DNA of 64,000 nucleotides from Yuukianura sp. NJ FZ-2021 (GCA_046563655.1 CM102285.1:1922001-1986000), one strand, 5' to 3'. Shown: positions 33,744-64,000, numbered from the stretch's first letter. The notes: generated by a model from the letters alone, not told the origin. Made by a program: numbers and translations.

Positions 33744-34460
33744 TTACTGTGTCAAAATAGTTGCATCCTGCGTTGCCGTTATGTTTTTGACCTTGGCGCA
33801 CAGTTTGTGCAGATAGATCATTTTCTTGGAAGAAAATCCGATTTCTCTCAGCTTTTTCTTGATTGTTCTCAATTGACCTCGTCTCAAGGTCAACTGCGAT
33901 GAAGTGACTGTCCATGCAGCTTGACCTTTCGACCCTATGCACCATCTCGTCAAAATCGTGGTTTCATCCGCCCAGACTACCTGAGTAGTATGCTTAGTGT
34001 AATGAAAAGCACTGTGACTTTTGACATTTCGCGAATTCCGACAGTAGTGAGTGAATTCATCCTGTTTGCACTTGACCTTCATCGTTCGCCCGTTTCTCGA
34101 CCATTTGAAAAAGACGATATTGTTGCGCTTGACCTTTACCCTAAATGATGACTCACAATGGACGATGTCAATAAATTCTTGTCCATTCCAGAGATAGCCT
34201 TCTGACCTTTTGTAGTTAAATTGGTACATCAGTTGACTTTGAACGACGATGTGCTTGAAAGTAGCTATAGGGGTGAAAGACGATATTGGAAGAGGGTCAA
34301 AGGTCGGCATGCAGCTACACACTGAGCAGCGTGGATTCAAATAGTCCTTCCTCCCAATATTCAAACTCTTCAGCAAATCGGATTTTTCTATGCCGTATGT
34401 AGATGCGAAAATTAAAGTGAACACGAACAGTGACAGCCCAAAAAATTTCGAGAGGCCCAT
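33744..34460 (-). CDS. Secreted basic Cys-containing protein, divergent lipocalin/calycin-like, paralog 1
   Basis: Intronless ORF from ATG 34460 with signal peptide. The PRC(S/T)xCSCMPTFDP motif is shared with two adjacent paralogs. C-terminal W.vsS...TL + helix + GF + Cys pattern resembles lipocalin SCR3. The gene itself is well supported; the fold is inferred. Confidence 0.75.
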   Translation of the reverse strand: MGLSKFFGLSLFVFTLIFASTYGIEKSDLLKSLNIGRKDYLNPRCSVCSCMPTFDPLPISSFTPIATFKHIVVQSQLMYQFNYKRSEGYLWNGQEFIDIVHCESSFRVKVKRNNIVFFKWSRNGRTMKVKCKQDEFTHYCRNSRNVKSHSAFHYTKHTTQVVWADETTILTRWCIGSKGQAAWTVTSSQLTLRRGQLRTIKKKLREIGFSSKKMIYLHKLCAKVKNITATQDATILTQ

Positions 34461-34646
34461 TGTAATTGTTGTATTCAAAATTGTTCCTCATTTTCTACTG
34501 CTGACAAAGTAAAGGGAGAGAGTAGATACTACAATGGCGTGAACGAAATTGTAATTTCATGAATTTTTATTAAAACAAATTAATTCTAGTAGTAATTAAT
34601 TTTAATGCTCAAGTGTTCCTACCGTAGGAACTGGTATTCAGAATTG

Positions 34647-35339
34647 CTAAGGAAAAAACAATGTCATGTTTTTGACCTTGGTGCACAATTTGGGCAGATA
34701 CACAATTTCCTTAGCAGAAAATCCGATTTGTCTTAGCTTTTTCTTGATAGTTTTCAATTGACCTCGTCTCAAGGTCGGCTGCGACGAACTGACTTGCCAA
34801 ACGGCTTGACCTTCTGAGCCTACGCACCATTTAGACAAAATTGTCGTTTCGTCAGCCCAGACTAACTGAGCAGTACGGAGACTGTAATCAAAAGTCGCCT
34901 GACTCTTGACCTTTGGTGAATTGCGACAGTAGTAAGTAAATTCATCCCGTTTGCACTTGACTTTCATCTTTCGCCCGTTTCTCGTCCATTCGAACACGCT
35001 CATATTTTTTTTCTTGACCTTTGACCTAAATGATGACTCACAGTGGACCGTGTCAATGTCTTCTTTTCCATTCCAGAGATGACCTTCTGACCTTTTGTGG
35101 TTAAAGTAGTACATCAGTGGACTTTGGGCTACGATGTACCTGGGAGCAGTTGGAGGAGCCCAAGATGATGTCGGCACAGGGTCAAAGGTCGGCATGCAGC
35201 TACACACTGAGCAGCGTGGATTCAAATAGTCTTTCCTACCATGCGCCAAATTCTTCATCAAATCGGATTTTTGTATGCCGTATGCAGATGCGAAAATTAA
35301 AGTGAGCAATGACAGTGCAAAAATGTTTGAGAGGCCCAT
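34647..35339 (-). CDS. Secreted basic lipocalin-like protein, paralog 2
   Basis: Intronless 230-aa ORF very similar to paralog 1. The upstream non-coding sequence is duplicated too (34461-34645 vs 35340-35515). Confidence 0.75.
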   Translation of the reverse strand: MGLSNIFALSLLTLIFASAYGIQKSDLMKNLAHGRKDYLNPRCSVCSCMPTFDPVPTSSWAPPTAPRYIVAQSPLMYYFNHKRSEGHLWNGKEDIDTVHCESSFRSKVKKKNMSVFEWTRNGRKMKVKCKRDEFTYYCRNSPKVKSQATFDYSLRTAQLVWADETTILSKWCVGSEGQAVWQVSSSQPTLRRGQLKTIKKKLRQIGFSAKEIVYLPKLCTKVKNMTLFFP

Positions 35340-35762: not shown

Positions 35763-36506
35763 TTAAGAATTTGTTTTTGTTTTGAGGTTTTCACACCTTT
35801 TGCGAACATTCAGCATTCCCTTGGCAGAAAATCCAATTTCTTTTAACTTCTTTTTAATAATCCTCATTTGACGTTGTGTCAAGGTCGTTTTAGTTGACTT
35901 GAGTGCCCAAACAGCATGACCTTCTGGTCCAATGCAGAATCGGGACAAAAATGTCGTGTCATCTGCCCAAATTGCTTGAGCAGTGTAAGTAGTGAAGGCA
36001 AACCTAGATTGTGCATCGCTGGACATGTTTTGACGTTGACCTGGATGACCAAGGTTTCTTGGTCTTTTTATTTTGCAGTAGTCAGTCATTCTGCCTTCCG
36101 AAATTTGCAACTTGCAATTAATCTTCATAACTCTACCGTTCCTTGTCCATTTGTGTAAGATACGTTTTCCCATTCTAGGGTTGGACGAAAACGTTGACTG
36201 GCAGTAGACCATGTCAGCATCTTCTCCCTCTTCCCATAACAACCCCTTTGACCTCACAGAGTTCCAGTAATCCATCAGTTGACTTTGGTACAACGTGTAA
36301 CGTTTAGTGTTGAACATTGGAGCGATGGTGTTTATGGGAACCGGGTCAAAGGTCGGCATGCAGCTACACGTAGTGCACCGTGGACGAATGTAATCTCTGG
36401 TTACATCTTTTAAACCTTGGCGCCAATCGAACTGGTCTTGGGCAATTGTAGTTGCAAAAAGTAAACTGAAGAGTAACGACGCTGTGGACTTTATGTGCGA
36501 ACACAT
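35763..36506 (-). CDS. Secreted basic lipocalin-like protein, paralog 3 (more divergent)
   Basis: 247-aa ORF with signal peptide, PRCTTCSCMPTFDP, WADDTT..C, and KKKLKEIGFS..C. Confidence 0.75.
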   Translation of the reverse strand: MCSHIKSTASLLFSLLFATTIAQDQFDWRQGLKDVTRDYIRPRCTTCSCMPTFDPVPINTIAPMFNTKRYTLYQSQLMDYWNSVRSKGLLWEEGEDADMVYCQSTFSSNPRMGKRILHKWTRNGRVMKINCKLQISEGRMTDYCKIKRPRNLGHPGQRQNMSSDAQSRFAFTTYTAQAIWADDTTFLSRFCIGPEGHAVWALKSTKTTLTQRQMRIIKKKLKEIGFSAKGMLNVRKRCENLKTKTNS

Positions 36507-37380: not shown

Positions 37381-39726
37381 ATGGGCTTATCTACTGTTAT
37401 TGCAGTGTTTGAATTTTGCTACAACATTTTACTATTTCACCCTCACACAACAGTTCCACTCGGAGAGTTTCCGGCGCCAGTGGCCATTCAATCAGTCGGA
37501 ATTCTTATGAGAACTATGTATGTTACCGCCAAATTTGCAAGAACCGACCCATGTATCGCCGCTATCTTCGTTCTACCCGTACCAGGGACACAAAAAATAA
37601 AAACTTCCAAAACATTTTCAAATTTGGAGCAGTACATTGGAGGTATGCATACAGGCCCTAATTCAGTTAAATTTCCGGACAAGTTCAAGACGAACCCAAA
37701 AGCCTACTTGCACCATCCAATTGGAAATGCTTACATTGTTTTCGTGTACCCACAAGGCTCACCTCCTACAGCAAAACATTTGCCGCTCCATTTCTTTACA
37801 AAAAGTCGATACGTTGCAGTTACTTATGTGGTTGGAGCTACTGACCAAACAATTTGCTTGCAAATTGTAAAGCGCCAATTTAATGCGTTCAGAGGTGTTC
37901 GCCTGTGGCCATCTTGTACTACAGAAGAGCCGAAATTCAACGTAAGTGTGCCGCACCTACCAATTAACATTTCTTTGTCTACTGTAAGCGGTACCATGGT
38001 TACGGAACTTGATTTGAGGAATCAAGTAATAAATATGTTAACCCCTTATTTTCAAAACTCGACAACAAATTTCGTGGGAGACTTAAACTGCGAAGGTCTA
38101 AGGGATTTGGCAGAAGATATAGACAAAAATCCTACAAATTTTGACGCTTACAAGCGCATGCGCACTACGATTTTGAACAAATACTTGAGTCCGTTTGTAT
38201 TTGAAGGGAAGTACAAAAATTGGTCATACTGTGAAATAACACAATATTCAAATGCAAATGAACAGGATTATTTAGGAGCAAATTTAGTTATCTTTGACCT
38301 TGGATATTATTTAGAACGAAAACCATTATTTAAAAGCGGATACATAACCCATATCGCAGTTTTGCACGGGTCAACGGGTAACGCATTTGGGTTTCTCGGG
38401 TGCATAAATTTACAAGAAGGAGTTAACTTTTTAGCATATGTTAAACCACTTGACCTCAATTCGTGGATAGCCTTAGGCATTTATGTATTGTTTGGGATTT
38501 TGGCGGGAGAAGTAGTTTTTAAAATACTTAAACTTAAGGACTCTCTGCTTATGATTGTCGTTACGTTATGTTTTGAACAAGGAATAGATTTTTCAGGGAA
38601 GTTAAAAAAGTTGTTATCTTTTACTATATTGTTCATTACTACACAGTATATTGTAATGTTATTTACCAACGGTTACAAAAGTTTTTTGATTACGAACATG
38701 TTGGCGCCAATTCCGCCACTGGAACTTAAAACGTTTCAAGAGGGACTCGCTGCAAACATGTCCTTTATACCATCTGAATTTCAGAGTTCCCGTTTTATTA
38801 CGGAGTGGATCGAGCGAGAAATGCCGAACAAGGCAAAGGTCACTTGGTTATTTTTTTCAAATTTCATGCAGGAAACTAGTCTTTGCGACTATTTTTCGGA
38901 ACATATGCCTTCTGTACCACGACATATCAAAGGAGATGTTTACATCTCGGTCTGGCCGTTTCTGAAGACAATCAGCTACCAGAATTTTACACTTAAGAGA
39001 ATGTGTATAGATGCTCTTCAGCTGAATGGTTGGAAGGCACAAGTAGTCAACAGTTTAACCCTGCCGGAAAAATTTCCAAGTGTAACCGCAGAAGAACAGT
39101 TTCTGAAATGTCAAGGTCAGCTGTTGGTTGTCAAGGAAGCAAGTATGGCTGAACATAGAGTGAAGTTGTATAGCTACAATGGGTCTACTGGGTTGTACAT
39201 TTACCAAAGTAATAACGTTAACAACGAAGGAGTACTGCGCGGCGAAAACAACGACTATATCTTTACGTTTAATGATATGTTTACTCTACAATATTTAAAA
39301 CATAGGGTATCGGCTCTAGCTAGCTCGGGATGTTTATTGCAGTGGGAGAAATATTTGAATTGGACAGAAAACCTTAAATTTTTTAAGCAAGAACAACAGT
39401 TTCTACACAGTGAGAAAAACGTCTTAAAAGAAAGTGAGTATTTGACGCTCATGAAAATAAGGTCAGTATTTGCAATCGTAGCAGTTGCGTTGAGTATATG
39501 TGTTTGCGGATTTGTTTATGAACAAATCAAAGCGTTTGCAAATAAATGCATCAGTGCTTACAAATCTAAGAAATGTAAGAAGACAAAGAAATATGGTTAC
39601 AAGTACCACGTCTCAAAACTAAATGCTCCAAAATTTGGTGCATACAAATTTAGTATTTACAAATTTAAAATACCTAGGATAAATATTCAAAAGTTGTTGC
39701 GTTTACTAATAAGAAAAAAAACTTAA
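37381..39726 (+). CDS. Divergent ionotropic receptor (IR)-like protein, single exon
   Basis: Uninterrupted ORF of about 781 aa: pre-M1 YVKPLDLNSW + TM, EQG pore-like segment, NGYKSFLITNMLAP (M3-like), S2-like region, LASSGCLLQW, and M4 IRSVFAIVAVALSICVCGFVYE. Paralogous to the genes at 54-64 kb. Confidence 0.8.
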   Translation: MGLSTVIAVFEFCYNILLFHPHTTVPLGEFPAPVAIQSVGILMRTMYVTAKFARTDPCIAAIFVLPVPGTQKIKTSKTFSNLEQYIGGMHTGPNSVKFPDKFKTNPKAYLHHPIGNAYIVFVYPQGSPPTAKHLPLHFFTKSRYVAVTYVVGATDQTICLQIVKRQFNAFRGVRLWPSCTTEEPKFNVSVPHLPINISLSTVSGTMVTELDLRNQVINMLTPYFQNSTTNFVGDLNCEGLRDLAEDIDKNPTNFDAYKRMRTTILNKYLSPFVFEGKYKNWSYCEITQYSNANEQDYLGANLVIFDLGYYLERKPLFKSGYITHIAVLHGSTGNAFGFLGCINLQEGVNFLAYVKPLDLNSWIALGIYVLFGILAGEVVFKILKLKDSLLMIVVTLCFEQGIDFSGKLKKLLSFTILFITTQYIVMLFTNGYKSFLITNMLAPIPPLELKTFQEGLAANMSFIPSEFQSSRFITEWIEREMPNKAKVTWLFFSNFMQETSLCDYFSEHMPSVPRHIKGDVYISVWPFLKTISYQNFTLKRMCIDALQLNGWKAQVVNSLTLPEKFPSVTAEEQFLKCQGQLLVVKEASMAEHRVKLYSYNGSTGLYIYQSNNVNNEGVLRGENNDYIFTFNDMFTLQYLKHRVSALASSGCLLQWEKYLNWTENLKFFKQEQQFLHSEKNVLKESEYLTLMKIRSVFAIVAVALSICVCGFVYEQIKAFANKCISAYKSKKCKKTKKYGYKYHVSKLNAPKFGAYKFSIYKFKIPRINIQKLLRLLIRKKT

Positions 39727-40341: not shown

Positions 40342-41431
40342 ATGGCGCACCACTGTGGAGGCTGCTGCAATGGAGACCATAATCATATGGATGACAGTCC
40401 TGAGATGGGCATTGAGTACAGTTTGTATACAAAGATTGACAAGGAGAATCTCACGTGCTTGAATGAACGTAGAGATGGGTCCGGTAAGGAAATCTTCAAA
40501 CCCTGGGAAGAAAGACTCATTATGAACAAGGTCAGTTAAAGCTTCTGTTCGTAAGACAGTCTAGTTGCATCTGATACTTTATTATGTATCCCCTCGTTTT
40601 TACTCGTTCGTGTCTTAATTGTTGACCTTATCTTTCTCGTTTAATTTCTTCTTTGATTTTTCAGGTCGTCGAAAGTGACGTTGACGAGGAGTTGCTCTTC
40701 AATATTCCGTAAGTTAAAGCCTTCAAGTACAATTGATATCGAATTGGAATGGAACTAGTATAATTTATTGGTGTTTTGGATTTATTAGGTTTGCTGGAAC
40801 TGTTAAACTAAAAGGAATTATAATCGTTGCACCAGATGATGACAGTCATCCACAACGTATGCGCTTGTAAGCACGGAATGCATTGGGTTTCCGAAATTCA
40901 TATGATTTGATTTTTTAACACCTCGTTTTCAACATGCTTTGCTAAGGTTCAAAAATCAGCCGAACATGACGTTCGACGATGCTCAAGCTGAAGCCGTCCA
41001 AGAGTATGAGTTGCACGCGGATCCCACCGGTCTCCTGGAATACCCTACTAAGTAAATCAATCAATTCCAGTTAAACTCAGCTCACTCGAAAAGCAGACTG
41101 GCCGTATACTTTGTATTTATCTAATTTCAATACTAAAATTTCAGAGTCGTCGCTTTTTCATCTGTGCATCATCTCACAATCCACTTCCCAATGAATTTTG
41201 GGACAGACACAACTCAGGTTTCTTACATTGGTTTGAGAGGTACAAGAAAAACCTGTTTCATCTTTATAGTCTGTGTTTATTTTACACTTCGCTTAACAAC
41301 TTTAACTTCTTTCAGGGGAATGGACACCGCAACAACGGCAAGAAATTACTATTGCCAACTACGAACTGCGACCAAACTTGTCGGATCATCCGAACCGAAT
41401 TTGGGACCAGACCTTTCACGAGGTGCAGTAA
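40342..41431 (+). CDS. PITHD1: PITH domain-containing protein 1
   Basis: Six exons: YSLYTKID..CLNE..FKPWEER | VESDVDEELLFNIP | FAGTVKLKGII | FKNQPNMTFDD | FSSVHHLTIHFPMNFG...YIGLRG | EWT..NYELRPNLSDH. TAA at 41429-41431. Confidence 0.95.
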
Positions 41432-42286
41432 AGCTCCCAAGTATCCAATTATTGTGATTCTCTCAATTAACTCAACATATAAATTCTGGTTAGAGGAAGA
41501 TTTATGTAAAAATTAAAGTTCGTTGGATATCTTATTGTCTTAAATCCTAAAAATAGCGTTCATACTAGCTACTAATTACCCATTTATCTTATATTTAGCT
41601 TAACTATTTTGAAATTACCATTAACAGAGCAAAATTAGGAATGAATCAACCAAAAACCAAACTTGGGAAAAGGAAGATTTGTTAACCCAAGCCGCAACCA
41701 CATTCAGCCCCTCTTCCTCTCCATCCTAAACCGCATTTGCAGTTGTCCTTGTTATCCACTGTGGAATTGTGATGCTCTTAGTGTTACGTGCATAGGTTAT
41801 GTTCTAAGCTCCAGTTGTTAGAGTTCTTAGGAGCTTAAACATTCGCTACAAAATGACCGTGACAGGTCAAGTAATTTTGGTCATGAGTCATTTGTAATAG
41901 TTCTGCGGCGATTTGAGAGGCTTAGGAAGAGACAATGACGTGGAAGATTGGCCGTGGAAGTTATTGGGAATGGTGGATTAAGATTTAAAATCTGATTGAA
42001 TAGCGTGTCAGAAGCTCCTCAAAATCTTTAGCATCTCAAAATGTGTCTTCTGAAGTGGTTCGATTCAGTTTTTATATAGTTTCTTTTGACATTGATTCAC
42101 TTCGAATCTGGAATCCATCCCAACCTAAAGTCAATTATGCAAGGATTAGGCTAAATTAAATTTCGGTAAGCAAGGGAGATGAACTTCAGAAAGTTTTGCT
42201 AGCAAAATCAACAATTTGTCTAAAAAAAAAAGCGACAACGCAACGTTGTGAAATTTTATGCTAACAGCTAAAAACTGGCGCTCACG

Positions 42287-45200
42287 ATGGAAGTCGAATC
42301 GAGCCACGCTACAAGCGGTAAGTTTTAAAAATCTCATTTAAAAAAAATGAGATTTCTTAAATAAAATTTTTGCTTGCTATAGACTCTGAGTCGCGTCGAA
42401 GCGGTAGTACAGAGGATATGCCGTTACTTGAAACTCAGGTAATGCTTCCAAAATTTCGAAAAACAAAATTTCAAAAAAAATCAGAAATGTAGTTTTTGAT
42501 AGTGAATTGATTTTTGTATTGAAAATTTTTCACAGAACGAAATTCCTTATCCGAAGTCTGTGTTCTTCATTGTTGTAACGGAATTTTGCGAACGATTTTC
42601 TTACACTGGAATGCGAAGTAAGTTTTTCGGTTGAATTTGAAAGGTGTCGCGTACATTTAAACTGCAAATGCTCAGAAATACGACAATGATTTGTATTTGC
42701 GCAGCCATTTTGACCATGTACATTCGAAATGTTTTGTACCGTGGAGCTTCGAATGCTGAAGACATTGCCACTGTCATTTATCACGCATTCGTTTCACTCT
42801 GCTATTTTACTCCACTTCTCGGAGGAATCATTGCAGACTCTTTCCTGGGAAAATACAAGTAAAATTTCAAAAAGAAATATTTACAAAAACTTCAGATTTT
42901 ACATATTTTGAAAATGTGTTTAAAAAAAATGTCTCCTTTCTAGGACTATTCTCTACATTTCAGTTGTATACGCCATTGGCAACTGTATATTGTCTCTTAC
43001 CGCTGTGGCTCCACTACACCTACCAAAAATGTAATTTGAAAAATTTATTGTTGCCAAATTCAAAATTTCGCGGGTTTTAAAGCAACGCCTTTTGTATTTC
43101 GCAGTCCGTTCAGTTTGCTGGGATTGGCGCTCATTGGTTTCGGAACAGGAGGAATCAAGCCTTGTGTCAACGCTTTTGCTGGTGACCAATTCAAATTGCC
43201 TGAACAAACGAAGCAGCTTCATCAATTCTTTTTCTTCTTCTACTTTGCAATCAATCTGGGGAGTTTGAGTTCAAATTTTGTCACACCGATCATGCGCAGA
43301 GACGTTTCTTGTTTTGGCTATGACACTTGCTACTCACTTGCCTTTGGAACGCCAGCTCTACTCTGGATTGTGGCTCTCTGTTGGTTCAAATTTAAATTAT
43401 ACAATTTTTTTTTAAATCCCGCGCAATTTTAGAATTTTTTTTAGTCATCTTCTTCTTGGGAAGTCGCCACTACAAGGTCAAGCAGCCTGAAGGCAACGTT
43501 GCTCTGGAAGTTGTGGGCTGCGTGTGGGTTAGTGAATTTAACATGACTTATTTTATTGCAATAATTATAGTTTTAGTCTTCTTGAGACGCACGTCTACGA
43601 CGTGCTGAAGAAGACTATTGATACGACTTTGTCCGTCTGTCTGTCTGTCCGTCCGTCCGTCACGTTTTTAGGACTCTTCCCACTGAAACATTAGCCCCAT
43701 CGCAGTCGGGGGGTTATGTATGGCTCAAGTATTTTCATTAGCTCTACATTTCACTTAAAGTCGTACATTAACAACGCCAAAGTATGCGGCTACTTTACGT
43801 ACCCGCAGTATCGTGGCTCCGCAAAACATTTTTGGTCTCGATTGTACTCAAAATATTTTTTAACAACGAAGTTTTGATCTGCTCATTTTCCGACAATATG
43901 TTAATTTACGTTGTTAATTTAAGCCTAGTTAGAGGGTAGAAAATCCGGCTTAAATGTTTAATATGTGAATAGTGAATGAAATGGGTCAAAATTGCATTCA
44001 CAAGGAATTTTTGGTTTTGATTTTAAAGAAACCACTTTCGAATATTCCTATCAACGTCAATTTTGTGCATGATGCACACAATTGAAGGTTTGTGTAGGTT
44101 TGAGAACTACCCTGAGCATTGCCATGACAACATCGACAATACATTATGTGCATCTTCTTCAACAAATTAAGAACATCAATCAAGAATGATATTTGACTCC
44201 TTCTAAGCGTTCAATTTTGTGCATTTTGTGCACACCAATTTAACAACAATTCAGAGCAAGTATTTTGGGCCTCAAAGCTTTAACATGATTTTGGTTTAAA
44301 TAACCGGTAAAATTGCCAAGACTCATGCACAAAATAGGATCTCATATTTGCACTAAAATTTTTAGCAACGTTTTAGAGCTTCAATTCCATGAAAACGGTT
44401 TCTCAGTTCGTCTACAGTTTTGCGGTAGGCCGGTCTACATGTCGTATCAATTGTCAACTCCCTCCAGAAGACCTATGCTCAACCCTTGAGCATCGCCCTA
44501 CCTTGTTTATATTATATTTATTTATGATAATTTATGTTTTAGCATGCTTTGACAGTTAAGGACCTCACAGCAGTTGGGAAAGATGGAGGTCACTGGCTGG
44601 ACAAAGCACGAGGGAAGTACAGTGCAGGATTTGTGGAAGATGTGAAAGCACTTTTTAGAATTCTGGTTCTAATTTCCCCACTTCCAATTTACTGGGCGTT
44701 GTATGAACAGCAGGTAGCTGTTAAAATATTTGCAAAAACCAAAAAATTGAGGAATTTCATTTTCGAAAAAGAATTCAATTCCAAAATTCAAAATTTTGAA
44801 ACAAGGGATCAACCTGGACACTTCAAGCTACGCGAATGAAAGGCTACATTTCACCGTATCTGAAGCTAAAACCAGATCAAATGCAGGTAAATAACTCTCA
44901 CAGGAATTTTTGAATTTTTATTTAAGTTTTTTTTTTCAAAACTTGGTCTATGGATAGGCGATGAACAGTTTTCTGATTTTGTTCTTCATCCCTCTGTTTG
45001 AGCGAATTATTTACCCACTGATGGCAAAGTGTCACATTCTGAAAACTCATCTTCAGCGCATGTGCGTTGGATGTGTCATGGTTTCTCTTGCGTTTGTCAT
45101 TTCTGGTATGGTGGAGCTGCGCATAGAGGTAGCACAACAGTTTTTGATGTGCAATTTTTCGAAAAACACGTTTTAAGTTTCATTTTTGAAAAATTGTTTT

Positions 45201-46747
45201 GTTTGTGCAGCCGACATACCCCGTCATACCATCCAGTTCTGAAACAAATTTGAATTTTATAAATTCCCTCCCATGCACTGTTGACTTTTACATGAAACAT
45301 TCAGATGCAAATGGACGGGCCCATTTTGCAGCAATTTTGGAACCTTATGAAAATATCAAGTTTGAAAAAATCCCTGCCGGCAAATACAACATTTCAACCG
45401 AATTTTGGAAAATGGACGACTGTAGCATCGAGGTTAACCCAAATTCAATCATAGTGGAAACGGAAGGCGGGAAGGTGCGTTAAAAAACAGATTCAAAAAG
45501 TTTGAACTTGTTTTGAAAATTGAACTTTTCGTTTTATGAAAATTCAGGCTTATAGTGCGTTTGTATCGACCGACAAAGACAACACAATTCAAATGGAGTT
45601 ATCGGTGGATGATTTGGAAAAGTCACGTGAAGGTGACGCTAAGCTAAAGTGAGAGGGATTACAAATCAAATTCAAACAAAAACAAAATCCAAAAAATTTT
45701 CGTTTTTTTTTAAATTTTTCATAAAATGCAAAAAAAAAAAAAAAATTCAGGGTCATTTATGGTCAGATGAAGAGTCCAAATGCTACGCTTGTTTTGACTA
45801 CAACGGAGGACTACAAAACAACCGTAGCCTTGCACGATGATGGAGGTTGCACGCATACCTGGGAGATTGAACCAAATATGTAAAAAGTTTTAGTTTTTCG
45901 AGAAAAAAAATTTACTTCGTTTTTTTAAAGTTGATTTTTTTCAATTCAGGTACAAGATTTGTTTGAATGACGGTCCACATCGGAAGCTTCTGTGCCAAAG
46001 TGTTTTGTTAGACGAAGGCGGAAATTACATCATCGCTGTTTTTCCTGAGCACCTTGGGAAAGGAAGCATAGTAGATTTGGATGCAAGCGTTGTAAGTTTA
46101 GGAGTTTGGCGGGAAATTTTAAATTTTAAAATGTTGAATTTGAACATTTTGAATTTGTTCAGGCGCTGAAGGTATTTGTGATGACGAGTCCAAATTCAGT
46201 TCACATGCTGTATCTTCTACCACAGTATGTCATGCTGACTTTAGCGGAATTATTCTTTTCAATTACCGGATTCACATTTGCTTACACTCAGGTACATGTG
46301 TTGAAATTTTTCAAACTACTTTAAACATGTTTTGAAACTTTGTTATTTTGGTGTTTTAAGGCCCCGGCAAGTATGAAAGCAGTGATCCAGAGCTTGTGGC
46401 TTCTAACAATTGGACTTGGTAGCTCTCTCGTTATTGTCATCACCAGTTTGGACTACTTTGAACGACCGGTAAAATTTTTTATTAAAACACCTTTGAATCA
46501 AGATTTGTGCCAACATTGTACTTTTTAAATCATTATTTTCCAGGCAATGCAATTCTTTTCATACAGTGTCATTATGCTTTTTGGAACTGCAATATTCAGC
46601 GTTCTTGCATATCGATACAAACCTATCGGAACAGCCACTAGCACGCCCACTGAAGATTCAAAACCAAGTACAGCTAGACGCAAATCCAAAGATTTTGTTA
46701 TGGATTCAGAAGAAATTCGAACAATGGCGCTAGATTTAGCTCAGTAA
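42287..46747 (+). CDS. Proton-coupled oligopeptide transporter (SLC15/PEPT1-type, yin-like), copy A
   Basis: Multi-exon gene with YPKSVFFIVVTEFCERFSYTGMR, GGIIADSFLGKYK, GTGGIKPCVNAFAGDQF, FYFAINLGS, WALYEQQGSTW, an extracellular loop, QAPASMK and a TAA stop. Confidence 0.93.
43571..44508 (+). mobile_element. Non-autonomous Helentron/DINE-1 (HINE)-like element inserted in a transporter intron
   Basis: 5' hairpin TAGTCTTCT..GCACGTCtacGACGTGC..AGAAGACTA, a GTCY microsatellite, a 3' subterminal inverted copy CTCCAGAAGAC, a 3' stem-loop ATGCTCAAcccTTGAGCAT and T-rich ends. Absent from the 87-nt equivalent intron of copy B (51646-51732). Confidence 0.85.
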
Positions 46748-53400: not shown

Positions 53401-53973
53401 CACATGCTCTACCTTCTACCACAGTATATCGTCCTGACATTGGCGGAATTATTTTCTCTATTACTGGATGCACATTTGCTTATACTCAAGTATGTGCGAA
53501 ATTTTTCAAAAAAAAATCAACTTTTTTCAAACGTTTTTGTTTCTGTGTTCTAAGGCCCCAGCAAGCATGAAAGCTGTGGTCCAGAGCTTATGGCTTCTAA
53601 CAATTGGACTTGGTAGTTTTCTCGTAATCGTCATTACGAGCTTGGACTACTTCGAACGACCAGTAAAAAATCTTTTAAAACACAAAAACTTCAAATCGGG
53701 TTGTTTGGGATTTGTAGTAAATCGATATTTTTTAAAATTATTATTTTCCAGGCAATGCAATTTTTCTCATACAGTGTCATTATGCTATTTGGAACTGTCA
53801 TATTCAGCGTTCTTGCATATCAATACAAACCTACCGGGACTGACACTACCACGTCCGCTGAAGGTTCAACACCAAATACTGCTAGACGCAAATCCAAAGA
53901 TTTTGTTATGGATTCAGAAGAAAATGGAACAATGGCGCTAGATTTAACTCAATCAGTAAAACGTGTAAAATAA
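50414..53973 (+). CDS. Proton-coupled oligopeptide transporter (SLC15/PEPT1-type), copy B (tandem duplicate)
   Basis: Same exon structure and near-identical motifs as copy A, with homologous upstream (about 49880-50400 vs 41760-42280) and 3' sequence. One intron needs a GC donor at 52652. Confidence 0.92.
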
Positions 53974-54277
53974 ATCAAGACTGTTAGTGTTTTATTAAAT
54001 ACAAATCTACGAGAATCTAGTATTCCTAAAATATTCCTGTGATAACCCAAATAAAAGATACCAAAGAGTTTCCTGACACTAAAAAGTTACTAAGATTGTT
54101 GTCGTTAGAAGGTTGAAGTGAATTTTAATCACATCTTTCTTTATTGCTACAAGCTATTAGCCAGAAAGCATGCTTAGATTTTGATATATAATACATTTTA
54201 CGTTTACAGTTTTTTAACATGCACTACGAAGCAAAGTATTCGCGAAATGAAAGTTAAAGTTTTAACACTATGTAAAA

Positions 54278-56962
54278 CTAATTGAATACACCAACGTTCC
54301 ATTTTACATCTATAGCACACAAAGTTCTAAAAATTGCATTTACATTTTTCACTAACACTTTTACCCACTCACATAAAAAGCCAGCAAGTGACAGCACAAT
54401 GCCTATTGTCACGAGAACAAAAACTGTACGAATCTTCGATAAGTTTAAAATCTGTGACTCTATTTTGCTATGTTGTGTAGTATTTGTGAGAAAATCCTGT
54501 TCTTCCTTTAAAAATTTGAGGTTGTAGGTCCAATTCATTGACTTTTCCCAATGTAAAATGAATCCTGACGTCGCTAAAACCTCTACTCTTTGTTTCAGGT
54601 ACTCCATAACGTATATGTCATTGAAGGTAAAAATATAGTCAAAGTTGTCTCCACGAATGACGCCTTCGCCATCCTTGTTGTTACTTTGATAGATATGCAA
54701 TTGTTCAGTCCTGTTGTTTTTGTATAGCTCGGCCTTCAGTTCTTGCATAATTGCTTCTTTTACAACAAGAAGATCACCTTTACACTTTAAAAAATGGCGG
54801 GAAGGAGGCCAATCTGGAAAATTTTCCGGAGAAACCAAACTGCTAATTAAACTTTTCCACAAATCTGTGTGATTAAACCTGTCGAGACACACTTCTTGTA
54901 ACGTAAAATTTGTTCTTTCTATGACGTTTTCTATATCGTATGCAAAGAACCCTGGTGAACCTATCATTACAGTTAAATCTGCTGAAATTGTTTTACACAA
55001 AGGCGTTTCTTGTAGAAATTTTGACATGAAAAGTATCAGTGCAGCCTGTGATTCGTTTGTTTTCTTTGGCCACTTAAGATTGTCTAGCCAAAATTCTCTG
55101 TAGTAATGAAAGTCATTAGGAATTATTGACAAATTTGATTTTACCGCTTCCTGAAATGTTTTGATTTCCGGTGGAGCAAGTGGTGCCAACATATTTGTAA
55201 TCAGTAGACTCTTGTATGCGTTGGGGAGAATTATAAAAATGTAGCGTATAGTTATGAATAACACAGTAAAAACTAAAGATTTTGTTAGTTTATGTGAGAA
55301 TTCCATCCCTTGTTCCATTGTCACCGTTACAATCATCATAAGTAGCGAGTCTTCAAATTTGTATGCTTTCAGTAGAATTCTACCACCTATGGTGAACAGA
55401 CATACAAAAATGACCAGACCTAACCAAAGTCTGGAATGAAATGGTTTCAAATAAGCCGTAAAACTTAATTCATCTTTTAAATTTACACAACCGAAAAACC
55501 CAAAAGCATTCCTAGTTGATCCATGCAAAGCTACAACAGTCCAAATGTATCCACCTCCAAATAATCCCAATTTTCGTGTGTGGAGCTCTTTCAAGTCAAG
55601 GATTAACAGATTGACTCCTAGAAAATTATCTTCGTGATATCTTACATTTCCACAGTACTGCCAACCTTTGTATTTTCTGTCTGCTAGGAACGGGATTGTG
55701 TAGTTGAGCATAATCTTGTCGCGCATGCGTCCGTAGATGTCAAAGTTCTGAATTTGGTTGTTTACGTAGTCTGCAGGCATTTGGAATGTTTTGCAGTTGT
55801 AGTCCGGTGTAAACTCCATAGTAATGTTTTGAAAATACAAGAATATACTTTTTAAAACATGGTTTCTAATACACTGCTCTGTGACTTTTCCACTATTTTG
55901 GAGATCTTGCGCTAACGTGTAGCTTGACATTCCGTAGTAAGTTTTGTTTATCGTAGAAGACAATCCTTTTGCCCCATGGTCTAAATTTATATATTATACA
56001 TTCATGTTATATATACATTAACTATGACAATAGACTGAATGTTCAAAACTACTGTATTAGAGGAACCCCTGAATTAGCAACAAAAAACCCTACCCGTTCT
56101 CCACCTTCTTGTGTGGAACCTCAATGAGGCCTACTTGGACGCCCGTGGAAAGGATTGGAGAAAAGGTTGAGGTTTTTTGTTGCTAATTGAGGGGTTCCTC
56201 TGCAGTAGGCACTATCACTACACATCATTGTGCAGTACACTGTAGTATGTAGTATACTGTATACATTGTACAACATGCAATATATATTACAAATAGTGCA
56301 TGTTATATATGGTAACCAAAAATATCCAATAAGAAAAAGTATTGTAAAGATGTCACAAAGATGTTCTTACCTTCTTGGCATGTTAAGTTGAAAAGCTGAA
56401 CTGCGCAAAACGGATGTTGACCAATTGTATTTTCTTGTAAGAAGAACGTATGTAAACAAGCATTGACTTCAATGGAATTTGGCCCAACAAAGTATGTGAC
56501 CCCCACTACTCTGCTTAGTAAATTAAGCCAAATAAATGGCACAGTATTTAAATTCAGATGTTCTGCGTTTTGTGGCACTACGTTGACTATATAAGCAAAC
56601 CCCATTGGGTGATTTAAATATTTAAGTCCAGACTCCGTTTGAGGGTTTGGAGAGATGTCTACATACGGATTATTCTCTCCATAATACGATCTGTATTCCT
56701 CTATGTTATAAAACACGGCTTCCGAATAATGTTTACCAATGACTTGTTGAGTGTGATTCAGCGATAAAACGTAAATTAGCGCAAAGCAAGGGTCTGTTCT
56801 TGCAAGCTTTGCCGTGATATAAAACATTCTCCATATAGAAGTGTTAGCAGCTTTCGTTGTTATTGGAAACTCAAAAGGCTCCAGAGGGACAGTAGTATTT
56901 GGGTAGATGACTAATAGGTTGTAGCAGAACTCAAAGGTCGCAAGTACACTAAGAATCCCCAT
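54278..56962 (-). CDS. Divergent IR-like protein (2 exons)
   Basis: Exon 1 56962-56371 (..CQE G|gtaag) and exon 2 55980-54278 (tag|AC CAT) join in phase 1. Motifs HGSTRNAFGFFGC, YLKPF..W, NAYKSLLITNMLAP and M4. Confidence 0.82.
56059..56201. mobile_element. MITE in IR-like gene intron
   Basis: 31-bp inverted repeats AGAGGAACCCCT(G/C)AATTAGCAACAAAAAACC with one mismatch. Confidence 0.85.
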
Positions 56963-57355: not shown

Positions 57356-59771
57356 TTAAAGTTTAACCACAATGTCTCTAGCATGAATGAAACTCAAAAG
57401 TGCATTCACGCTTTTTACTATGACGGACAACTGCAAATATAAGAAGTAGAACACTGAAAATGCAATTCCTATTGCTCCAATAACAAAAACTGATCGCAGT
57501 TTTTCCAGACTTAGGACAAGGTCATTAATTTTGTCGTTTTTTGTTGCTGAAAGAAATTTTTGTTCCTCTATCATAAATTTTAGGTTGTTTGTCCAATTCA
57601 AAGACTTTTCCCAGTGTCGTAGAAACCCTGAACTGCCTAATACATCCACCCTTTGCTTCAAGTACTCCAGAACATACATGTCATTGAACGTAAAAATATA
57701 GTCATAGTTGTCACCACGAATGATGCCCTCATTTTCTTTGTTATTGCTTTGGTAAATGTGTAGCCCTTCAGTTTTGTTGCTTTTGTACAACTTTACTTTT
57801 TCTTCTTGCATACTCGCTTCTTTTACAACCAGTAAGTGATTACTACATTTCAAAAAATGGCGGGAAGGAGTGGAATTTGGAAAATTTTCCGGCGGAACCA
57901 ACTTAGTGATAACACTTTTCCGCCAACCAGTGTGATTAAACCTATTGATACATATATCTTATAACGAAAAGTTTCGCTTATTTATTCTCGTGCTTATTTC
58001 GTCAATTGTCAAGTCTCCTGGTAGTGTAACTTCAAGAATCATATCTGAAAATGTTTTGCACAGCGGTGTTTGCTGTAAAAAATTGGACATGAACAGTAAC
58101 ATGTCATTGTCTGATTGTGGTAGTCTTTTGTGCGTTTCGTTCCAGTTATTACACATCTGCTTCCACAGGAAGTAAAATTCATTCGGAATCAGATACGAAT
58201 TTGAATTCGCCGCTTCCTGAAACGTTTTAATTTCATGCGGAGTCAGCGGAGCCAGCATGTTTGTAATTAACAAACTTTTGTAGCCGTTGGACAAAATTAT
58301 AAAAGCGTATCGTAGAATTATACAGACAGCAGAAAACGTCAACAATTTAGTCAACTTTGCTGAAAAGTTAACACCTTGTTCCATTGCTATGGTTACAAAG
58401 ATAATAAAAAGAGAGTCTGTAAATTTGTACACGAGAAACAAAATCTTGCCAATTATGGTTGCTAATACACCCAGTACGACCAGTCCACACCAAAGGTTGA
58501 AGTAAAACGGTTTTAAATACGCGCCAAAATTCATATCATCCCGAAATTTTATGCAACCAAAGAACCCAAAGGCGTTTCCAGTTGATCCATACATCACTAT
58601 GGTATGCCACATTAAGCCACCACGGAACACTGGTCTTCGAATGTGTAAATCTTTAACATCGGAAACAAACATATGTAGTCCAAGAAGATCATATTCATCA
58701 AATGTACTGAATGTGCAATACTCCCAATTTTTGTACTTTTCATGGGTTAAGAATGGACCCAAGTAATCGAATAGGATGATATGATGCATGCGTTGGTAGA
58801 TGTCGTACTGTTCAGGATGTTTTGCCACATGTTTAGCCCTGTCAGGGCTAACCATTACGCAGTTCCTGTCAACTAGAAAGTGCTTTGTTAAGTTTCTAAA
58901 CTGAGAAAATGTTCCGCTCAAAACCAAATTTCTAATAGATTGCTCCGTCATCAGTCTTCTGGAGTTTGGTTTAGTTGTTCCCAAAGCAGCCTCTTTTGCG
59001 CAAATATCTAAAAAACATATTCCACGTATTACTAATATTCAGAATTGTTTTCACAGTTTATGCTTATCATACGCTTATTATGGAATTTCGACGTTGTACG
59101 TATGTTTGTATGTCTGACTGTCAACTTATGTGCTCATCTGCGACAATTATTCATAATTAAATAATGTTGGTATTACCTTCTTTGCATGTTGGATTATGAT
59201 ACGCCAGGACGCAAAGTAATGGTTGAGAATGAGTGAGAGAATCTCCATGTCGTAAGAAAACCTTCAGTAAGCAGACGCTTAACTCATAAGTATTTGGCAA
59301 GAGTGTGTAGGTGATTGCGACGACTCTGCTTTTTAAATGAAGCCAAGTGAATGGTTCTGCGGGCGAACCTTTAACTTTAACTTTCGAATTCAGTACAGAA
59401 ACTATATAAGCAAAACCAATTGGTTGGTTCAAGTATTTCAGCGGTGACGTAGTCTGCACATTTGCACTATTACGATCAGGTGGCGTCTGTCCATAATATT
59501 CCTTGTACTCCTCCACATTGAAAAATACTGAACTTTGATACTCTGTCCCAACAACTTCAGTAAAATTTGGCGGAAGTACGTATATTAAGGCGAAACATGG
59601 GTCTGTTTGTGCCAATTTTGCCGTCACGTACATCATTCTGTATACTGTTCTATTGACAGATTGTGTTGCCAGTGGATGAAAGAAGGGTTCCATTTGAACA
59701 GTTGTCGTTGGGTAGACAACAAGCAACTTATAACAAAACTCAAATGCTGCTAGAATGTGAGCCAAACCCAT
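57356..59771 (-). pseudogene. Divergent IR-like gene with a single in-frame premature TAA
   Basis: Exons 59771-59177 and 59007-57356. TAA at 57961-57959 sits where the neighbouring paralog has CAA (NFSL-Q-DICIDRF), and the frame is intact downstream to the normal stop. Confidence 0.82.
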
Positions 59772-60991: not shown

Positions 60992-63900
60992 TTAAAGTTT
61001 GAGAAAAATGTCAATAGCATAAAGGAAACTAAAAATTGAATACACGTTTTTTACTACGACGCACAACTGCAAATAAAAAAACATAATGCTTGAAAATGCA
61101 AATCCTGTCGCTGCAATAGCAAAAACTGATCGCAGTTTTTTTAGGCTTAGGACAAGGTCTTTAATTTTGTCGTTTTTTGCTGCTGTGAGAAATTTTTGCT
61201 CCTCTTTCATAAATTTTAGGTTGTTTGTCCAATTCAAAGACTTTTCCCAGTAACGTAGAAATCCTGAACTGCCCAACACATCCACTCTATGTTTCAAGTA
61301 CTCAAGAACATACATGTCATTGAACGTAAAAATATAGTCGTAGTTGTCACCACGAATGATGCCTTCGTTTTCTTTGTTATTGCTTTGGTAAATGTGTAGC
61401 CTTTCAGTTTTGCTGCTCTTGTACAACTTCACCTTTTCTTCTTGCAAGCTAGCTTCCCTTACAACTAGTAAGTCGCTACTACATTTCAAAAAATGGCTTG
61501 AAGGAGTAGAATTTGGAAAATTTTCCGGCGGAATCAAGTTATTGATCACCCTTTTCCGCCAACCAGTGTGATTAAACCTGTCGATACATATATCTTGTAA
61601 CGAAAAGTTTCGCTTATACATTCTCCTATCTATTTCGACAAATTCCAAGTCGCCTGGTAGTGTACCTTCAAAAACCAAATCCTCCGAGAATGTTTTGCAT
61701 AGCGGTGTTTGCTGTAAAAATTCGGACATAAATAGTAAAGCGTCACTGTCTGATTGTGGTGGTCTTTTGGGGGCGTTCGGCTCTTGACGCCATACAGAAT
61801 CCCAGTAGAAGTAAAAGTCATTTGGAATCAATGATGAATTTAAATTCACCGCTTCCAAGAAAGTTTTAACTTCATGTGGAGTCAGCGGAACCAACATGCT
61901 TGTTGTTAGCAAACTTTTGTAGCCGTTGGAAAGAATTATAAAAACATAGCGTAACGTTATAAATAAAATAGAAAACTTCAATGATTTAGTTAGCTTTGCT
62001 GAAAAGTTAACACTTTGTTCCATTGTTATTGTAACAAAGATAATAAATAACGAATCTGTAAATTTGTACATGATAAAGAAAGTTTTGCCAATAATGATTG
62101 CCAGAACACCCAATATAACCAGTCCACACCATAGGTTCGAACTAAACGGTTTTAAATACGCGGTAAAATTCAAGTCATCCCGCAGATTTATGCAACCGAA
62201 GAACCCAAAAGCATCCCCAGTTGATCCATGCAACACTATCATATGCCACATTAAAGCACCATAGAACACAGGTCGTCTGAAATGCAAATCTTTAACATCG
62301 GATACAAACATATGTAGTCCAAGAAGATCATCTTCGTCATAATTTCCTTTACAATACTCCCAATTTTTGTACTTTCCATGCGTTAAAAATGGAGCCAAGT
62401 AGTTGAACAGAATGATATGACGCATGCGCCGGTAGATATTGAACCTTTCAGGATATTTTCTCAAGGATGACGTCATGGAATGCTCACCTGCGCAGTTAAA
62501 ATTAGGTATAAACTGCTTTGTTAGGTTTCTAAACCGAGAAAATATTCCGCTCAAAACGACATTTTTAATACATCGCTCCGTCATCAACATTCTCGAGTAA
62601 GGTTTAAGTGATCCACCACCATTTTTGCTCTCGCCAATATCTAAAAACACATTAAGTGAAAATATTAAAATATACAAAACTAAACACATTTTAATAGCAT
62701 ATTATAGTTCAACTGAAAATGATTGACAGTTTGTTGAAAGCCGAAATTTTTATTTTTGGCGTGGAGACGTCGAAGTTGCAATAACGATTGCGTGTCAATT
62801 TGTACCCTTTGGAGCTTAAATCTTTGTGCAAACGCAAGTGTAACTTAAGTCGGTAATATTTATTTTACTCATTCCTAAAACCCACTCGTACATAAATAGG
62901 AATTCGTACAAAGTGATAAAGGTAAGACGAGGACTGTTAAAGTTATGCCAATTGAAGAATATTTATTTGTGACAAAACAATATGGAACTTTGCTACTTAC
63001 GAGGTACACTTTAGAAACAACATTAAGGAATAACTTACACTGAATGGTATGTTTATACAAGAGAGATAGTAGAATTGAGGAAAAAATGATCAAATGATTG
63101 AACCTATTCCGAATACGAATCCGAACCTGATTCGGAATCTATACTAGCATTTTTGACCGAAATAACAATGCGCTCTTGTGTGATCCGGATAAAATCTTCA
63201 GTGATATTTTCTGCTTTCATGATGAGCTCATCAAGTTCAATTACATGGCGAACGCATGACTGCCACATTTTGGTCTATTTCTGGGGATTGAATTACAAGT
63301 TGTACGATTGGTTAAGAGAATCTTAAAAGTCTTGTTCCTTTTCTTTACAGCGTCTAATCTAAATGGATCCTCCCATAAATGGGCATATTTGAACCATTCT
63401 TAGGCTATTTATTTAATTAGTACGCAGGTTTTCATTTATTTTATTTATAAGTCGTCTGGACACAGTTGCATCGCCCGGTTTATGTCAACCATGTTGTTAC
63501 CCGGGCCAACCATGATGTTACGCGCAAAAATTCAAAATCAACAAACTGTCAATCATTTTCGGTTGAACTATAATAATCATTAATGTTCTAAAACGTTCAC
63601 ATAATACTCAGATTGATTGAACAATTACTATTAAGTAGCTAAAGTTTATGCGGTGCTCTTGTATGTCTTTGTATTTCTCTGTCTGGTGGTTAGCACAAGC
63701 GACCGTCGATGGCAATTATTACAAATTAGTACTTGTTTGTTTTCAAATATGTAAACCGTTTCACAGTCACGCGGAGACATTTAAATGTCGTGCTCAAATG
63801 CAAATGAGGTTTATCTGCAGTTGACATGTCAATGAATCTTTCGCTACTTGTGTGCGCCTCAATTACCACGGTTCCACCCTAATTTATTGATCTAATTCTA

Positions 63901-64000
63901 ACTTCTATTAATTTCAAGTATAGTATTTTGCGTTACGATAAGGTTAGTTACCTTGGCATGTTGGATTATTATATTCCATAAGACACTGGTTGGGTTCAGA
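60992..64000 (-). CDS. Divergent IR-like protein (exon 1 starts beyond the window end)
   Basis: Exon 1 tail 64000-63952 (SEPNQCLMEYNNPTCQ G|gtaac) and exon 2 62640-60992 (tag|AT ATT GGC). Close paralog of the 57356-59771 gene. Confidence 0.82.
62705..63570. mobile_element. Internally deleted IS630/Tc1-mariner-like DNA transposon in IR intron
   Basis: Inverted repeats TAGTTCAAC(T/C)GAAAATGATTGACAGTTTGTTGA flanked by TA on both sides. Minus-strand degenerate peptides FRLDAV..KILL / SYNL*FNP and KMWQSCVRHVIE resemble the C-terminal part of DDE_3 transposases. Confidence 0.75.

Follow-up and report, generated by a model that had tools for sequence, protein, structure and literature searches.

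Octocoral terpenoid gene clusters consist of a terpene cyclase adjoining P450s and other tailoring enzymes. To our knowledge, carriers, transporters and receptors are the partners in no described terpenoid cluster type.

Springtail terpene synthases were reported only in 2024–2026. According to PMC13638087, 277 terpene synthase genes of microbial type are present in 21 of 26 springtail genomes, with a mean of 13 per springtail, and 45% of the reported genes are intronless. The kind of gene studied here is thus already published, and the suggestion in the original prediction that it would be unusual in animals fails for the synthase itself. The named enzymes include FcTPS2/5 and AfTPS2 (PMC11665903) and ScTC1–5 (PMC13638087), single-domain proteins of class I that span about 350–400 aa and have the DDxxD/E, NSE-type and RY motifs. 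Among the accessible passages of PMC13638087, none dealt with the genomic neighbours of these genes (clusters, P450, lipocalin or receptor), and those of PMC11665903 were likewise silent.

The window, meaning the whole 64-kb stretch of DNA analyzed, resembles the octocoral clusters in that an animal genome carries a microbial-type terpene cyclase close to candidate partner genes. Unlike those clusters, it holds no tailoring enzyme or prenyltransferase among the ORFs scanned, and carriers, transporters and receptors take the partner role in the proposed module. To what has been published it contributes a terpene synthase that is very divergent and apparently intact, along with two unnamed gene families, and it calls for caution, as it is easy to over-read suggestive neighbours when a gene family is dispersed.

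A divergent terpene synthase

The terpene synthase (TPS) is an intronless ORF of 375 aa on the minus strand (47842–48966). The lone ORF reached PF19086 at E 0.0018–0.0019 with 18.5 bits, which is below the cut-off of 23.7. A word-index homologue search with TPS found none among 1463 candidates, and a single-sequence PDB search gave two matches, both unrelated, and did not reach the bacterial cyclase structures. When HMMER was run in full against 1.84 billion representatives, 22 relatives were recovered. The top relative is 32% identical, and the nearest named one is Folsomia candida XP_035702665 (E 3.2e-21, 26% identical), values that set TPS apart from the known springtail enzymes as very divergent. 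TPS is otherwise like the springtail enzymes of PMC11665903 and PMC13638087: it is a single-domain class I protein of similar length, intronless, set among arthropod genes and with a Folsomia candida protein among its relatives.

A family profile was built from the ORF and 10 of its relatives (11 sequences) and searched against the PDB. It matched 101 sequences at E ≤ 1, the best being 7zrn (E 1.4e-21, residues 51–355), and the best 60 of the 101 were all terpene cyclases or variants engineered from one, including 10 SVS-variant/design entries. PF19086 was matched by 11 of the 11 aligned members.

In class I terpene synthases, the second metal site is defined as (N/D)Dxx(S/T/G)xxxE, and a C-terminal RY pair is also expected. 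The first metal-binding motif, DDxxD/E, is present in TPS as DDFIE (residues 111–115), with D111 and D112 invariant among the 11 sequences. The second appears as NDILGIKRD (258–266), with Gly at position 5 and Asp at position 9, and N258 and D259 are invariant in the same alignment. For the RY pair (350–351), R350 is invariant and Y351 nearly so. These metal motifs and the sensor Arg are in register with those of the bacterial sesquiterpene cyclases over residues 51–355, namely 10-epi-cubebol synthase (7zrn), (+)-T-muurolol synthase (9hqd) and pentalenene synthase (1ps1). Unlike the bacterial enzymes, TPS lies in an animal-type genome and has Gly for Ser/Thr and Asp for Glu in the second metal motif. 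The family profile and the conserved motifs confirm, at the level of sequence, that the ORF is a microbial-type terpene synthase, as originally predicted; it belongs to class I, is very divergent and apparently intact, and keeps DDxxE, NDxxGxxxD and RY.

Contamination was considered as the source of TPS and was ruled out due to the host-like G+C (0.38–0.40 in the TPS region, the same as in the window), the occurrence of the family in springtails and the intron-bearing arthropod genes on either side.

No second biosynthetic enzyme was found among 96 further ORFs of at least 72 aa in the 64-kb window. P450, prenyltransferase, methyltransferase, dehydrogenase and glycosyltransferase genes were absent from the scanned ORFs and exon-sized frames, a scan in which short exons could be missed, and the caveat that no P450 or prenyltransferase is visible therefore stands. 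A biosynthetic gene cluster in the plant, fungal or octocoral sense holds at least two enzyme classes of one pathway as neighbours, and among the ORFs scanned the window contains TPS alone.

Gene families around the terpene synthase

TPS sits in a 3-kb spacer between tandem copies of an SLC15/POT gene. Copy 1 (42506–46744, plus strand) and copy 2 (50641–53970, plus strand) are multi-exon genes lying in duplicated blocks (41749–46839 and 49874–54051), and copy 2 has 80–82% nucleotide identity to copy 1. PF00854 matched the exons of the two copies at E 1.5e-27 and 3.9e-28, through seven exon-sized ORFs in copy 1 (profile positions 2–349 of 392) and five in copy 2. The TM1 exon, which carries EFCER in copy 1, reads EFCERFSYTG in both copies, so that ExxER, which we take to be the canonical TM1 motif of SLC15/POT, is kept and one Tyr is changed. 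Two SLC15 transporters are thus present as proposed, but their description as motif-altered was overstated. Ahead of copy 1 lies a PITH-domain exon (41137–41457, plus strand; PF06201, E 2.1e-08), interspersed as the original prediction had cautioned; it is a gene of housekeeping type outside any proposed module.

Three secreted Cys-rich proteins are encoded on the minus strand to the left of TPS: LIP1 (33747–34460, 238 aa), LIP2 (34650–35339, 230 aa) and LIP3 (35766–36506, 247 aa). LIP1 is a single ORF matching no Pfam family, and LIP2 and LIP3 are 69% and 42% identical to it, respectively. Eight Cys are common to the three paralogues, and each has a hydrophobic N-terminus. Their dN/dS of 0.38–0.57 indicates purifying selection; the range over the secreted and channel-like paralogue families together is 0.18–0.57. 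The paralogue alignment confirms that the trio is a real family with a secreted-type N-terminus, whereas its lipocalin identity is a lead only. The lead comes from a language-model comparison, in which the look-alikes of LIP2 that have a Pfam family all belong to the lipocalin clan (score 0.89–0.91). The look-alike clusters of both LIP2 and IR_A (described below) are arthropod, which, together with the Folsomia candida relative of TPS, supports a springtail origin of the DNA.

The LIP proteins matched no lipocalin Pfam family. A PDB profile search with the secreted family gave one unrelated match (E 1.4) and no solved lipocalin, and comparison with E. coli Blc by hhalign gave no significant alignment (probability 0.4%, E 0.15). 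The predicted structure (mean pLDDT 38.1) was too poor for fold comparison, and a word-index homologue search with LIP2 found none among 91 candidates. Like lipocalins such as bacterial Blc, ApoD and the triabin/nitrophorin type, the LIP proteins are secreted and have about 210 aa in the mature form. In the non-significant alignment with Blc, a stretch near their C-terminus (Cys-Gly ... Trp ... helix ... Gly-Phe) corresponds to the final strand and helix of that protein. Unlike lipocalins, they carry at the N-terminal end an additional Cys-rich segment, about 65 aa long. A literature search for springtail lipocalins and terpenes gave two matches, and the one listed concerned mites.

The second family comprises four channel-like paralogues with 43–53% identity, located on both sides of TPS. 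IR_A (37381–39726, plus strand) is intronless and encodes 781 aa. IR_B (54281–56962, minus strand) has two coding blocks, 54281–55993 and about 56306–56962, with an intron between them. IR_C (57359–59771, minus strand) also has two coding blocks, 57359–59038 and about 59160–59771, and carries an in-frame stop at 57959–57961. The main exon of IR_D (60995–62701, minus strand) encodes 569 aa, and the last 16 or so codons of its first exon are visible at 63953–64000, the rest lying beyond the window end.

Ionotropic receptors (IRs) and iGluRs share a layout of signal, ectodomain, TM, pore-like loop, TM, a loop of about 260 aa and a final TM. IR_A has a hydrophobic N-terminus (1–19), about 340 aa between this signal and the first TM (362–380), a short hydrophobic segment (378–396) and further TMs at 411–429 and 695–713; the loop before the last TM is about 260 aa long (265) and has NxS/T at 459, 535, 600 and 660. 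The membrane pattern of IR_B, IR_C and IR_D is as in IR_A, and all four show the order S1 - M1 - re-entrant loop - M3 - S2 - M4. The language-model look-alike clusters of IR_A are named ionotropic receptor (score 0.90–0.93).

Profile searches did not recover this relation. Lig_chan (PF00060) and the ligand-binding-domain families PF10613 and PF24061 gave no match at E ≤ 0.1 on the seven IR-like ORFs among the 11 ORFs scanned, and neither PF00060 nor PF10613 gave one at E ≤ 10 on four core pieces of the IR-like genes. A PDB profile search with the family returned no iGluR among eight matches at E ≤ 10; the matches were only NaK channel pores, which were weak (E 0.4–2.8) and aligned the TM - loop - TM segment to the pore. 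An AlphaFold2 model from seven paralogue rows was unusable (mean pLDDT 35.6), a word-index homologue search with IR_A found none among 6499 candidates, and a prokaryotic Lig_chan protein for comparison was found neither in E. coli K-12 nor in 14 control genomes. An exact-sequence lookup of TPS, LIP1, LIP2 and IR_A in the protein collection found none of the four.

The four paralogues are thus confirmed as a real family by their alignment, and their identity as ionotropic receptors is a lead suggested by the membrane layout and the language-model look-alikes. The two original claims of three lipocalin-like proteins and four related IR-like receptors are therefore borne out as to families, secretion-type N-terminus and receptor-like layout; the lipocalin matches in Pfam and PDB and the Lig_chan match did not materialize, and one receptor-like copy is interrupted by a stop. 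According to PMC6938034, Campodea augens has 2,431 IRs, and the IRs of early-branching hexapods are divergent and mostly intronless. The window family is like them in its tandem arrangement, few or no introns, a pseudogenised copy and fast divergence, and it differs from them in having no PF00060, PF10613 or PDB iGluR match.

Explanations of the neighbourhood

We consider that the locus is probably a fast-evolving, lineage-specific neighbourhood of springtail type and not a demonstrated pathway, with adjacency arising from tandem duplication and the scattering of TPS. In such a neighbourhood, each gene would act on its own. TPS would ionise a prenyl diphosphate through the DDxxE and NDxxGxxxD metal sites and then cyclise it. 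Small hydrophobic molecules may be the cargo of the secreted proteins, the channel-like family may consist of divergent ionotropic chemoreceptors, and the SLC15 genes would import peptides. Their proximity would result from tandem duplication of the neighbours, as the identities within the SLC15 blocks, the IR-like genes and the secreted trio given above suggest, together with the dispersal of TPS copies across the genome. Around TPS, hairpin repeats lie on both sides, the secreted trio on the left and channel-like tandem copies on both sides.

Synteny in relatives had been proposed as a check, and it was followed in eight short metagenome contigs recovered by a scan with a four-row TPS alignment, six of which carry 1 kb or more of flanking sequence (about 28 kb in total). 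Among these six, a homologue of the secreted family was found in one and a homologue of the left relic in another. None of the eight contigs contained an SLC15 gene or any gene homologous to the four IR-like ones. In contig L008, the homologue of the secreted family (E 6e-8 and 2.5e-6), whose best match in the window is LIP3, is separated by 270 bp from a TPS fragment. In contig L001, 0.9 kb separates the TPS of that contig from a homologue (E 5e-5) of the C-terminal part of the left relic. The left relic (16289–18952, minus strand) consists of two ORFs, 16289–16900 and 18278–18952, with tandem repeats between them. The window TPS and those of L008 and L001 fall in one four-member subclade with support 100/99, and the presence of these homologues within one subclade speaks against the explanation above, since it suggests linkage that was kept and not mere coincidence.

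The arrangement in L008 is also a point in favour of a second explanation, which we regard as unlikely: the TPS subclade would have stayed linked to a secreted family that solubilises, stores or delivers the terpene, with the SLC15, PITH and IR-like genes as bystanders. The lipocalin-clan look-alikes of LIP2 and the purifying selection on the trio are also consistent with such a pair that makes and carries a terpene. However, the TPS of L008 is a truncated, frame-broken fragment without about 137 N-terminal residues, which leaves this pair non-functional in its present state, and the 6.6-kb and 3.3-kb flanks of L001 contain no secreted-family gene. Within the window, 11 kb and three unrelated genes separate TPS from the closest secreted gene, and neither the structure prediction, the PDB profile search nor the comparison with Blc yielded a lipocalin fold. 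It is quite unlikely that this subclade has kept its linkage, down to 25–32% protein identity, with the family of secreted, lipocalin-like Cys-rich proteins, and possibly with a gene of receptor-like type, as a make-and-carry pair for a terpenoid signal or defence compound, a cluster kind not described so far. If it were true, it would be the first case in an animal in which a binding protein, and not tailoring enzymes, is linked to a biosynthetic gene, and a carrier family travelling with one TPS subclade would provide a handle on terpene storage, release and presentation in a soil animal.

A third explanation, which we consider improbable, is that TPS arrived recently as a passenger or that its segment is misplaced. 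A 1.87-kb piece between hairpins would have been moved by repeat-mediated transposition or recombination, or by the assembler, and the neighbours would then say nothing on TPS function. A hairpin-forming dispersed repeat of 47 nt (47587–47633) lies 209 bp beyond the TPS stop, and a 220-bp repeat element (49450–49669) that begins with the same hairpin (49452–49498) lies upstream of TPS, 486 bp from its start. These direct 47-nt repeats are 91% identical and bracket exactly TPS and its short flanks, and the hairpin pattern occurs three times in the window against none expected. A 215-bp copy of the 220-bp repeat (43569–43783) lies within the SLC15 copy 1 block.

Window DNA was present in five DNA sequencing runs from two studies, with no RNA run among those listed, and with fragmented contigs in which dispersed repeats and one 866-bp indel were seen. 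Among the records listed, short-read contigs end at the repeats (46686–47612 and 47764–49521), and none listed joins TPS to either SLC15 gene. Against a passenger or misplacement, the G+C of the segment matches that of the window, and neither a target-site duplication nor a transposase was seen. The repeat is also common, with a contig depth in the bin containing the 47587–47633 hairpin 50–170 times that of neighbouring bins, so the copies flanking TPS may be coincidence. Contig joints that skip TPS were read as repeat artefacts due to their short sides; they have 25–37 matching letters on the shorter side, as expected from repeat copies elsewhere.

Least probable is the full module, a co-regulated terpenoid signal or defence system in which TPS makes, the lipocalin-like proteins carry, SLC15 moves and the IR-like proteins sense the compound: the four kinds of gene occur together within 30 kb, a relic homologue accompanies the L001 TPS, and TPS and SLC15 copy 2 are divergently oriented about 1.7 kb apart, but the eight related contigs lack SLC15 and IR-like homologues, the left relic, taken for an IR relic in the original prediction, has no demonstrable relation to the IR-like genes (E 0.66), SLC15/POT proteins carry peptides and have their motif intact here, IR_C carries a stop, and the maker and sensor of a signal would normally be in different cells, leaving linkage without obvious benefit.

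Further left than the relic, a carboxylesterase-family gene (6163–10947, minus strand) has a COesterase exon reading GEGAG at the catalytic-Ser motif, where the Ser belongs, in agreement with its description as a dead esterase.

The terpene synthase and its relatives

The terpene synthase (TPS) ORF at 47842–48966 on the minus strand encodes 375 aa, counted from the first Met, and has no intron. The sequence alone matched Pfam PF19086 only under the cut-off (E 0.0018–0.0019; 18.5 bits against 23.7), a word-index search found no homologues, and a single-sequence search of solved structures found no terpene cyclase. HMMER was run in full over 1.84 billion representatives and gave 22 relatives at E ≤ 0.001, with 11 at E ≤ 1e-10 and 2 at E ≤ 1e-30; the closest was only 32% identical, and a Folsomia candida protein was among the relatives. 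The window ORF and 10 relatives were aligned to give a profile. D111, D112, N258, D259, D339, and R350 are invariant in this alignment, and the window protein carries the motifs DDFIE and NDILGIKRD and a C-terminal RY pair.

At E ≤ 1, this profile reached 101 PDB sequences; each of the 60 listed is either a terpene cyclase or a variant engineered from one. The best match was 10-epi-cubebol synthase (7zrn, 1.4e-21), with T-muurolol synthase, presilphiperfolanol synthase, and pentalenene synthase as further top matches. The motifs and the sensor Arg were in register with the solved cyclases, and PF19086 was matched by 11 of the 11 aligned sequences. Because of these profile matches, the register of the motifs, and the shared Pfam family, the ORF is, at the level of sequence, a genuine microbial-type class I terpene synthase that is apparently intact, and enzymatic activity would be expected of it.

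The tree built from 15 relatives places the window TPS in a four-member clade (support 100/99) with P0001 and P0002, the TPS proteins of metagenome contigs L001 and L002, and a fragment on contig L008. One publication describes TPS genes with active enzymes in Folsomia candida and Allacma fusca (PMC11665903), and another counts 277 springtail TPS genes in 21 of 26 genomes, on average 13 per species and 55% with introns (PMC13638087). The window TPS adds a strongly divergent new member to this already published springtail family.

Gene content of the window

The G+C content across the window is 33–40%. Intron-bearing animal genes are present, among them genes for two SLC15/POT transporters, a PITH-domain protein, a protease of the trypsin-like kind, and a carboxylesterase, and the language-model look-alikes of two window proteins are arthropod clusters. 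As to which genes are present, the original prediction was largely right. Its "dead esterase" stands because the carboxylesterase-family exon (6738–6923, minus strand) has GEGAG at the catalytic-Ser position, so that Gly stands where the nucleophile Ser would be. This replacement is known from non-catalytic esterase-like adhesion proteins, which the window exon resembles in missing that Ser. A 100-N assembly gap within 11303–11842 lies next to this esterase gene, on its 5' side. A 325-aa ORF (4650–5624, minus strand) gave a weak META-domain match just below the cut-off (E 9e-5); this domain occurs mostly in bacteria and kinetoplastids.

The two tandem SLC15 genes lie in duplicated blocks (41749–46839 and 49874–54051) and were recognized by PF00854 on exon-sized ORFs. 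The blocks are 80–82% identical in DNA, and a 0.94-kb insertion breaks copy 1 inside an intron. Both copies have EFCERFSYTG in the TM1 exon, where the canonical POT motif is ExxERFxYY. The SLC15 genes are therefore present as predicted, but calling them motif-altered was an overstatement, because ExxER is kept and only one Tyr is changed.

The secreted trio, LIP1–3, consists of single-ORF genes at 33747–34460, 34650–35339, and 35766–36506, all on the minus strand, with identities of 69% and 42%, a common hydrophobic N-terminus, and 8 conserved Cys. Their dN/dS of 0.38–0.57 indicates that they are real, constrained genes. All look-alike clusters with a Pfam family belong to the lipocalin clan in the language-model comparison (triabin/nitrophorin/lipocalin 0.91, RBP4 0.90, ApoD-like 0.89). 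An hhalign alignment to E. coli Blc placed the C-terminal Cys-Gly...Trp...helix...Gly-Phe on the last strand and helix, with a probability of only 0.4%. A word-index search found no homologues, and the structure model was unusable (pLDDT 38). A family of secreted type was predicted properly, but the Pfam scan returned no lipocalin family and the PDB profile search no lipocalin match; "lipocalin" is a lead on thin evidence.

Four channel-like proteins, IR_A (37381–39726, plus strand, intronless) and IR_B, IR_C, and IR_D (minus strand), are 43–53% identical with dN/dS of 0.18–0.39. All four share one layout by hydropathy: a hydrophobic segment at the N-terminus is followed by an ectodomain of ~340 aa, the first and second TMs flank a short hydrophobic loop, and a ~260-aa loop carrying four N-glycosylation sequons leads to the third TM and the tail. 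This matches S1-M1-pore-M3-S2-M4, the plan of iGluRs and IRs. Language-model look-alikes were unnamed arthropod clusters (0.96–0.97) and clusters named ionotropic receptor (0.90–0.93). The only PDB profile matches were weak (E 0.4–2.8) and placed the TM-loop-TM stretch onto the NaK channel pore; the word-index search found no homologues, and the structure model failed (pLDDT 36). Since the layout and look-alikes fit but Lig_chan and ligand-binding-domain families gave no match even at E ≤ 10, we describe these proteins, predicted to be four related receptors, as a related family that is IR-like in architecture and do not class them as IRs; the name is a lead.

IR_C has a single in-frame stop (57959–57961) and is otherwise 72% identical to IR_D. 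The stop may mark a recent pseudogene, or it may be a variant that segregates or stems from the assembly; none of the short-read contig differences listed falls at this site. Only the last ~16 codons of the first exon of IR_D are within the window, at its end. In contigs from three DNA runs, all of one sample, 62702 is joined straight to 63569; another haplotype or read set therefore lacks the 866-bp stretch between them (62703–63568), which immediately precedes the main exon of IR_D. In another early-branching hexapod, IR arrays have been described that are large and mostly intronless, turn over fast, and contain many pseudogenes (PMC6938034).

Farther left, two ORFs (16289–16900 and 18278–18952, minus strand) that had been called an IR relic are split by tandem repeats. 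They showed no significant similarity to IR_A–IR_D (E 0.66) and no Pfam family. Between them, 17426–18189 (minus strand) holds two runs of tandem peptide-like repeats with units of about 7 aa.

Repeats bracketing the terpene synthase

The TPS lies in the 3-kb spacer between the SLC15 blocks, bracketed by hairpin-forming repeats in direct orientation. One 47-nt copy (47587–47633) is 209 bp beyond the TPS stop, and the second (49452–49498), 91% identical, is 486 bp upstream of the start. The latter heads a 220-bp element (49450–49669), of which a 215-bp copy lies within an SLC15 intron (43569–43783). Contig depth in the bins holding the repeat is 50–170 times that of the neighbours; depth is not copy number, but this makes the element a dispersed repeat, perhaps MITE-like or Helitron-end-like. 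With direct repeats on both sides, it is possible that the 1.87-kb TPS segment was moved through them. The short-read contigs listed end at the hairpin repeats and thus give no independent support for the TPS-SLC15 join.

Linkage of the terpene synthase to its neighbours

For the synteny comparison, 16 window proteins were searched against 8 metagenome contigs with TPS relatives (6 with at least 1 kb of flank, flanks of ~28 kb in all), and the window was searched in turn with the contig ORFs. A homologue of the secreted family was found at one locus (L008 763–1449; 25–27% identical; E 6e-8 forward, 2.5e-6 back), with a signal-like N-terminus and 270 bp from a TPS. A homologue of the left relic was also found at one locus (L001 8601–8738; 37% identical across 46 aa; E 5e-5 in each direction), 0.9 kb from the L001 TPS. 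Because both of these TPSs belong to the four-member clade of the window gene, their neighbours look like the pattern expected of retained linkage, and this is the main result against pure chance. However, the relic itself is broken, which weakens the hint.

A narrower linkage of the TPS with a carrier, to make and carry a terpenoid, would be consistent with the L008 arrangement, but we consider it unlikely. Both this reading and the hint of retained linkage are weakened by two further points: the TPS on L008 is cut short and its frame is broken, and in the window 11–14 kb separate the secreted genes from the TPS, a distance that holds IR_A, the PITH gene, and SLC15 copy 1. The whole make-carry-sense module of the original prediction is very improbable on present evidence. 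SLC15, PITH, and the IR_A–IR_D family had homologues at 0 loci among the 8 contigs, and no second pathway enzyme was found in a further 96 ORFs of at least 72 aa or in the other window ORFs and exon-sized frames scanned.

Duplication and decay of TPS copies appear to be common. The L008 relic (1716–2391), 59% identical to P0001, lacks ~137 N-terminal residues and has a frame break; on L001, a TPS piece of 47 codons (5622–5762) lies upstream of the intact gene. L001 also carries a 422-aa multi-pass membrane ORF (2577–3842, minus strand), 2.7 kb upstream of its TPS, with no Pfam family and no window homologue. On contig L005, a 345-aa ORF (542–1576, minus strand) lies 1.5 kb from a springtail-type TPS (3072–4175, plus strand) and has a class I SAM-methyltransferase domain behind a hydrophobic N-terminus (Methyltransf_25 E 2e-13, CMAS 4.5e-11). 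This pairing recalls the prenyl-diphosphate methyltransferase/terpene synthase pairs that exist in bacteria.
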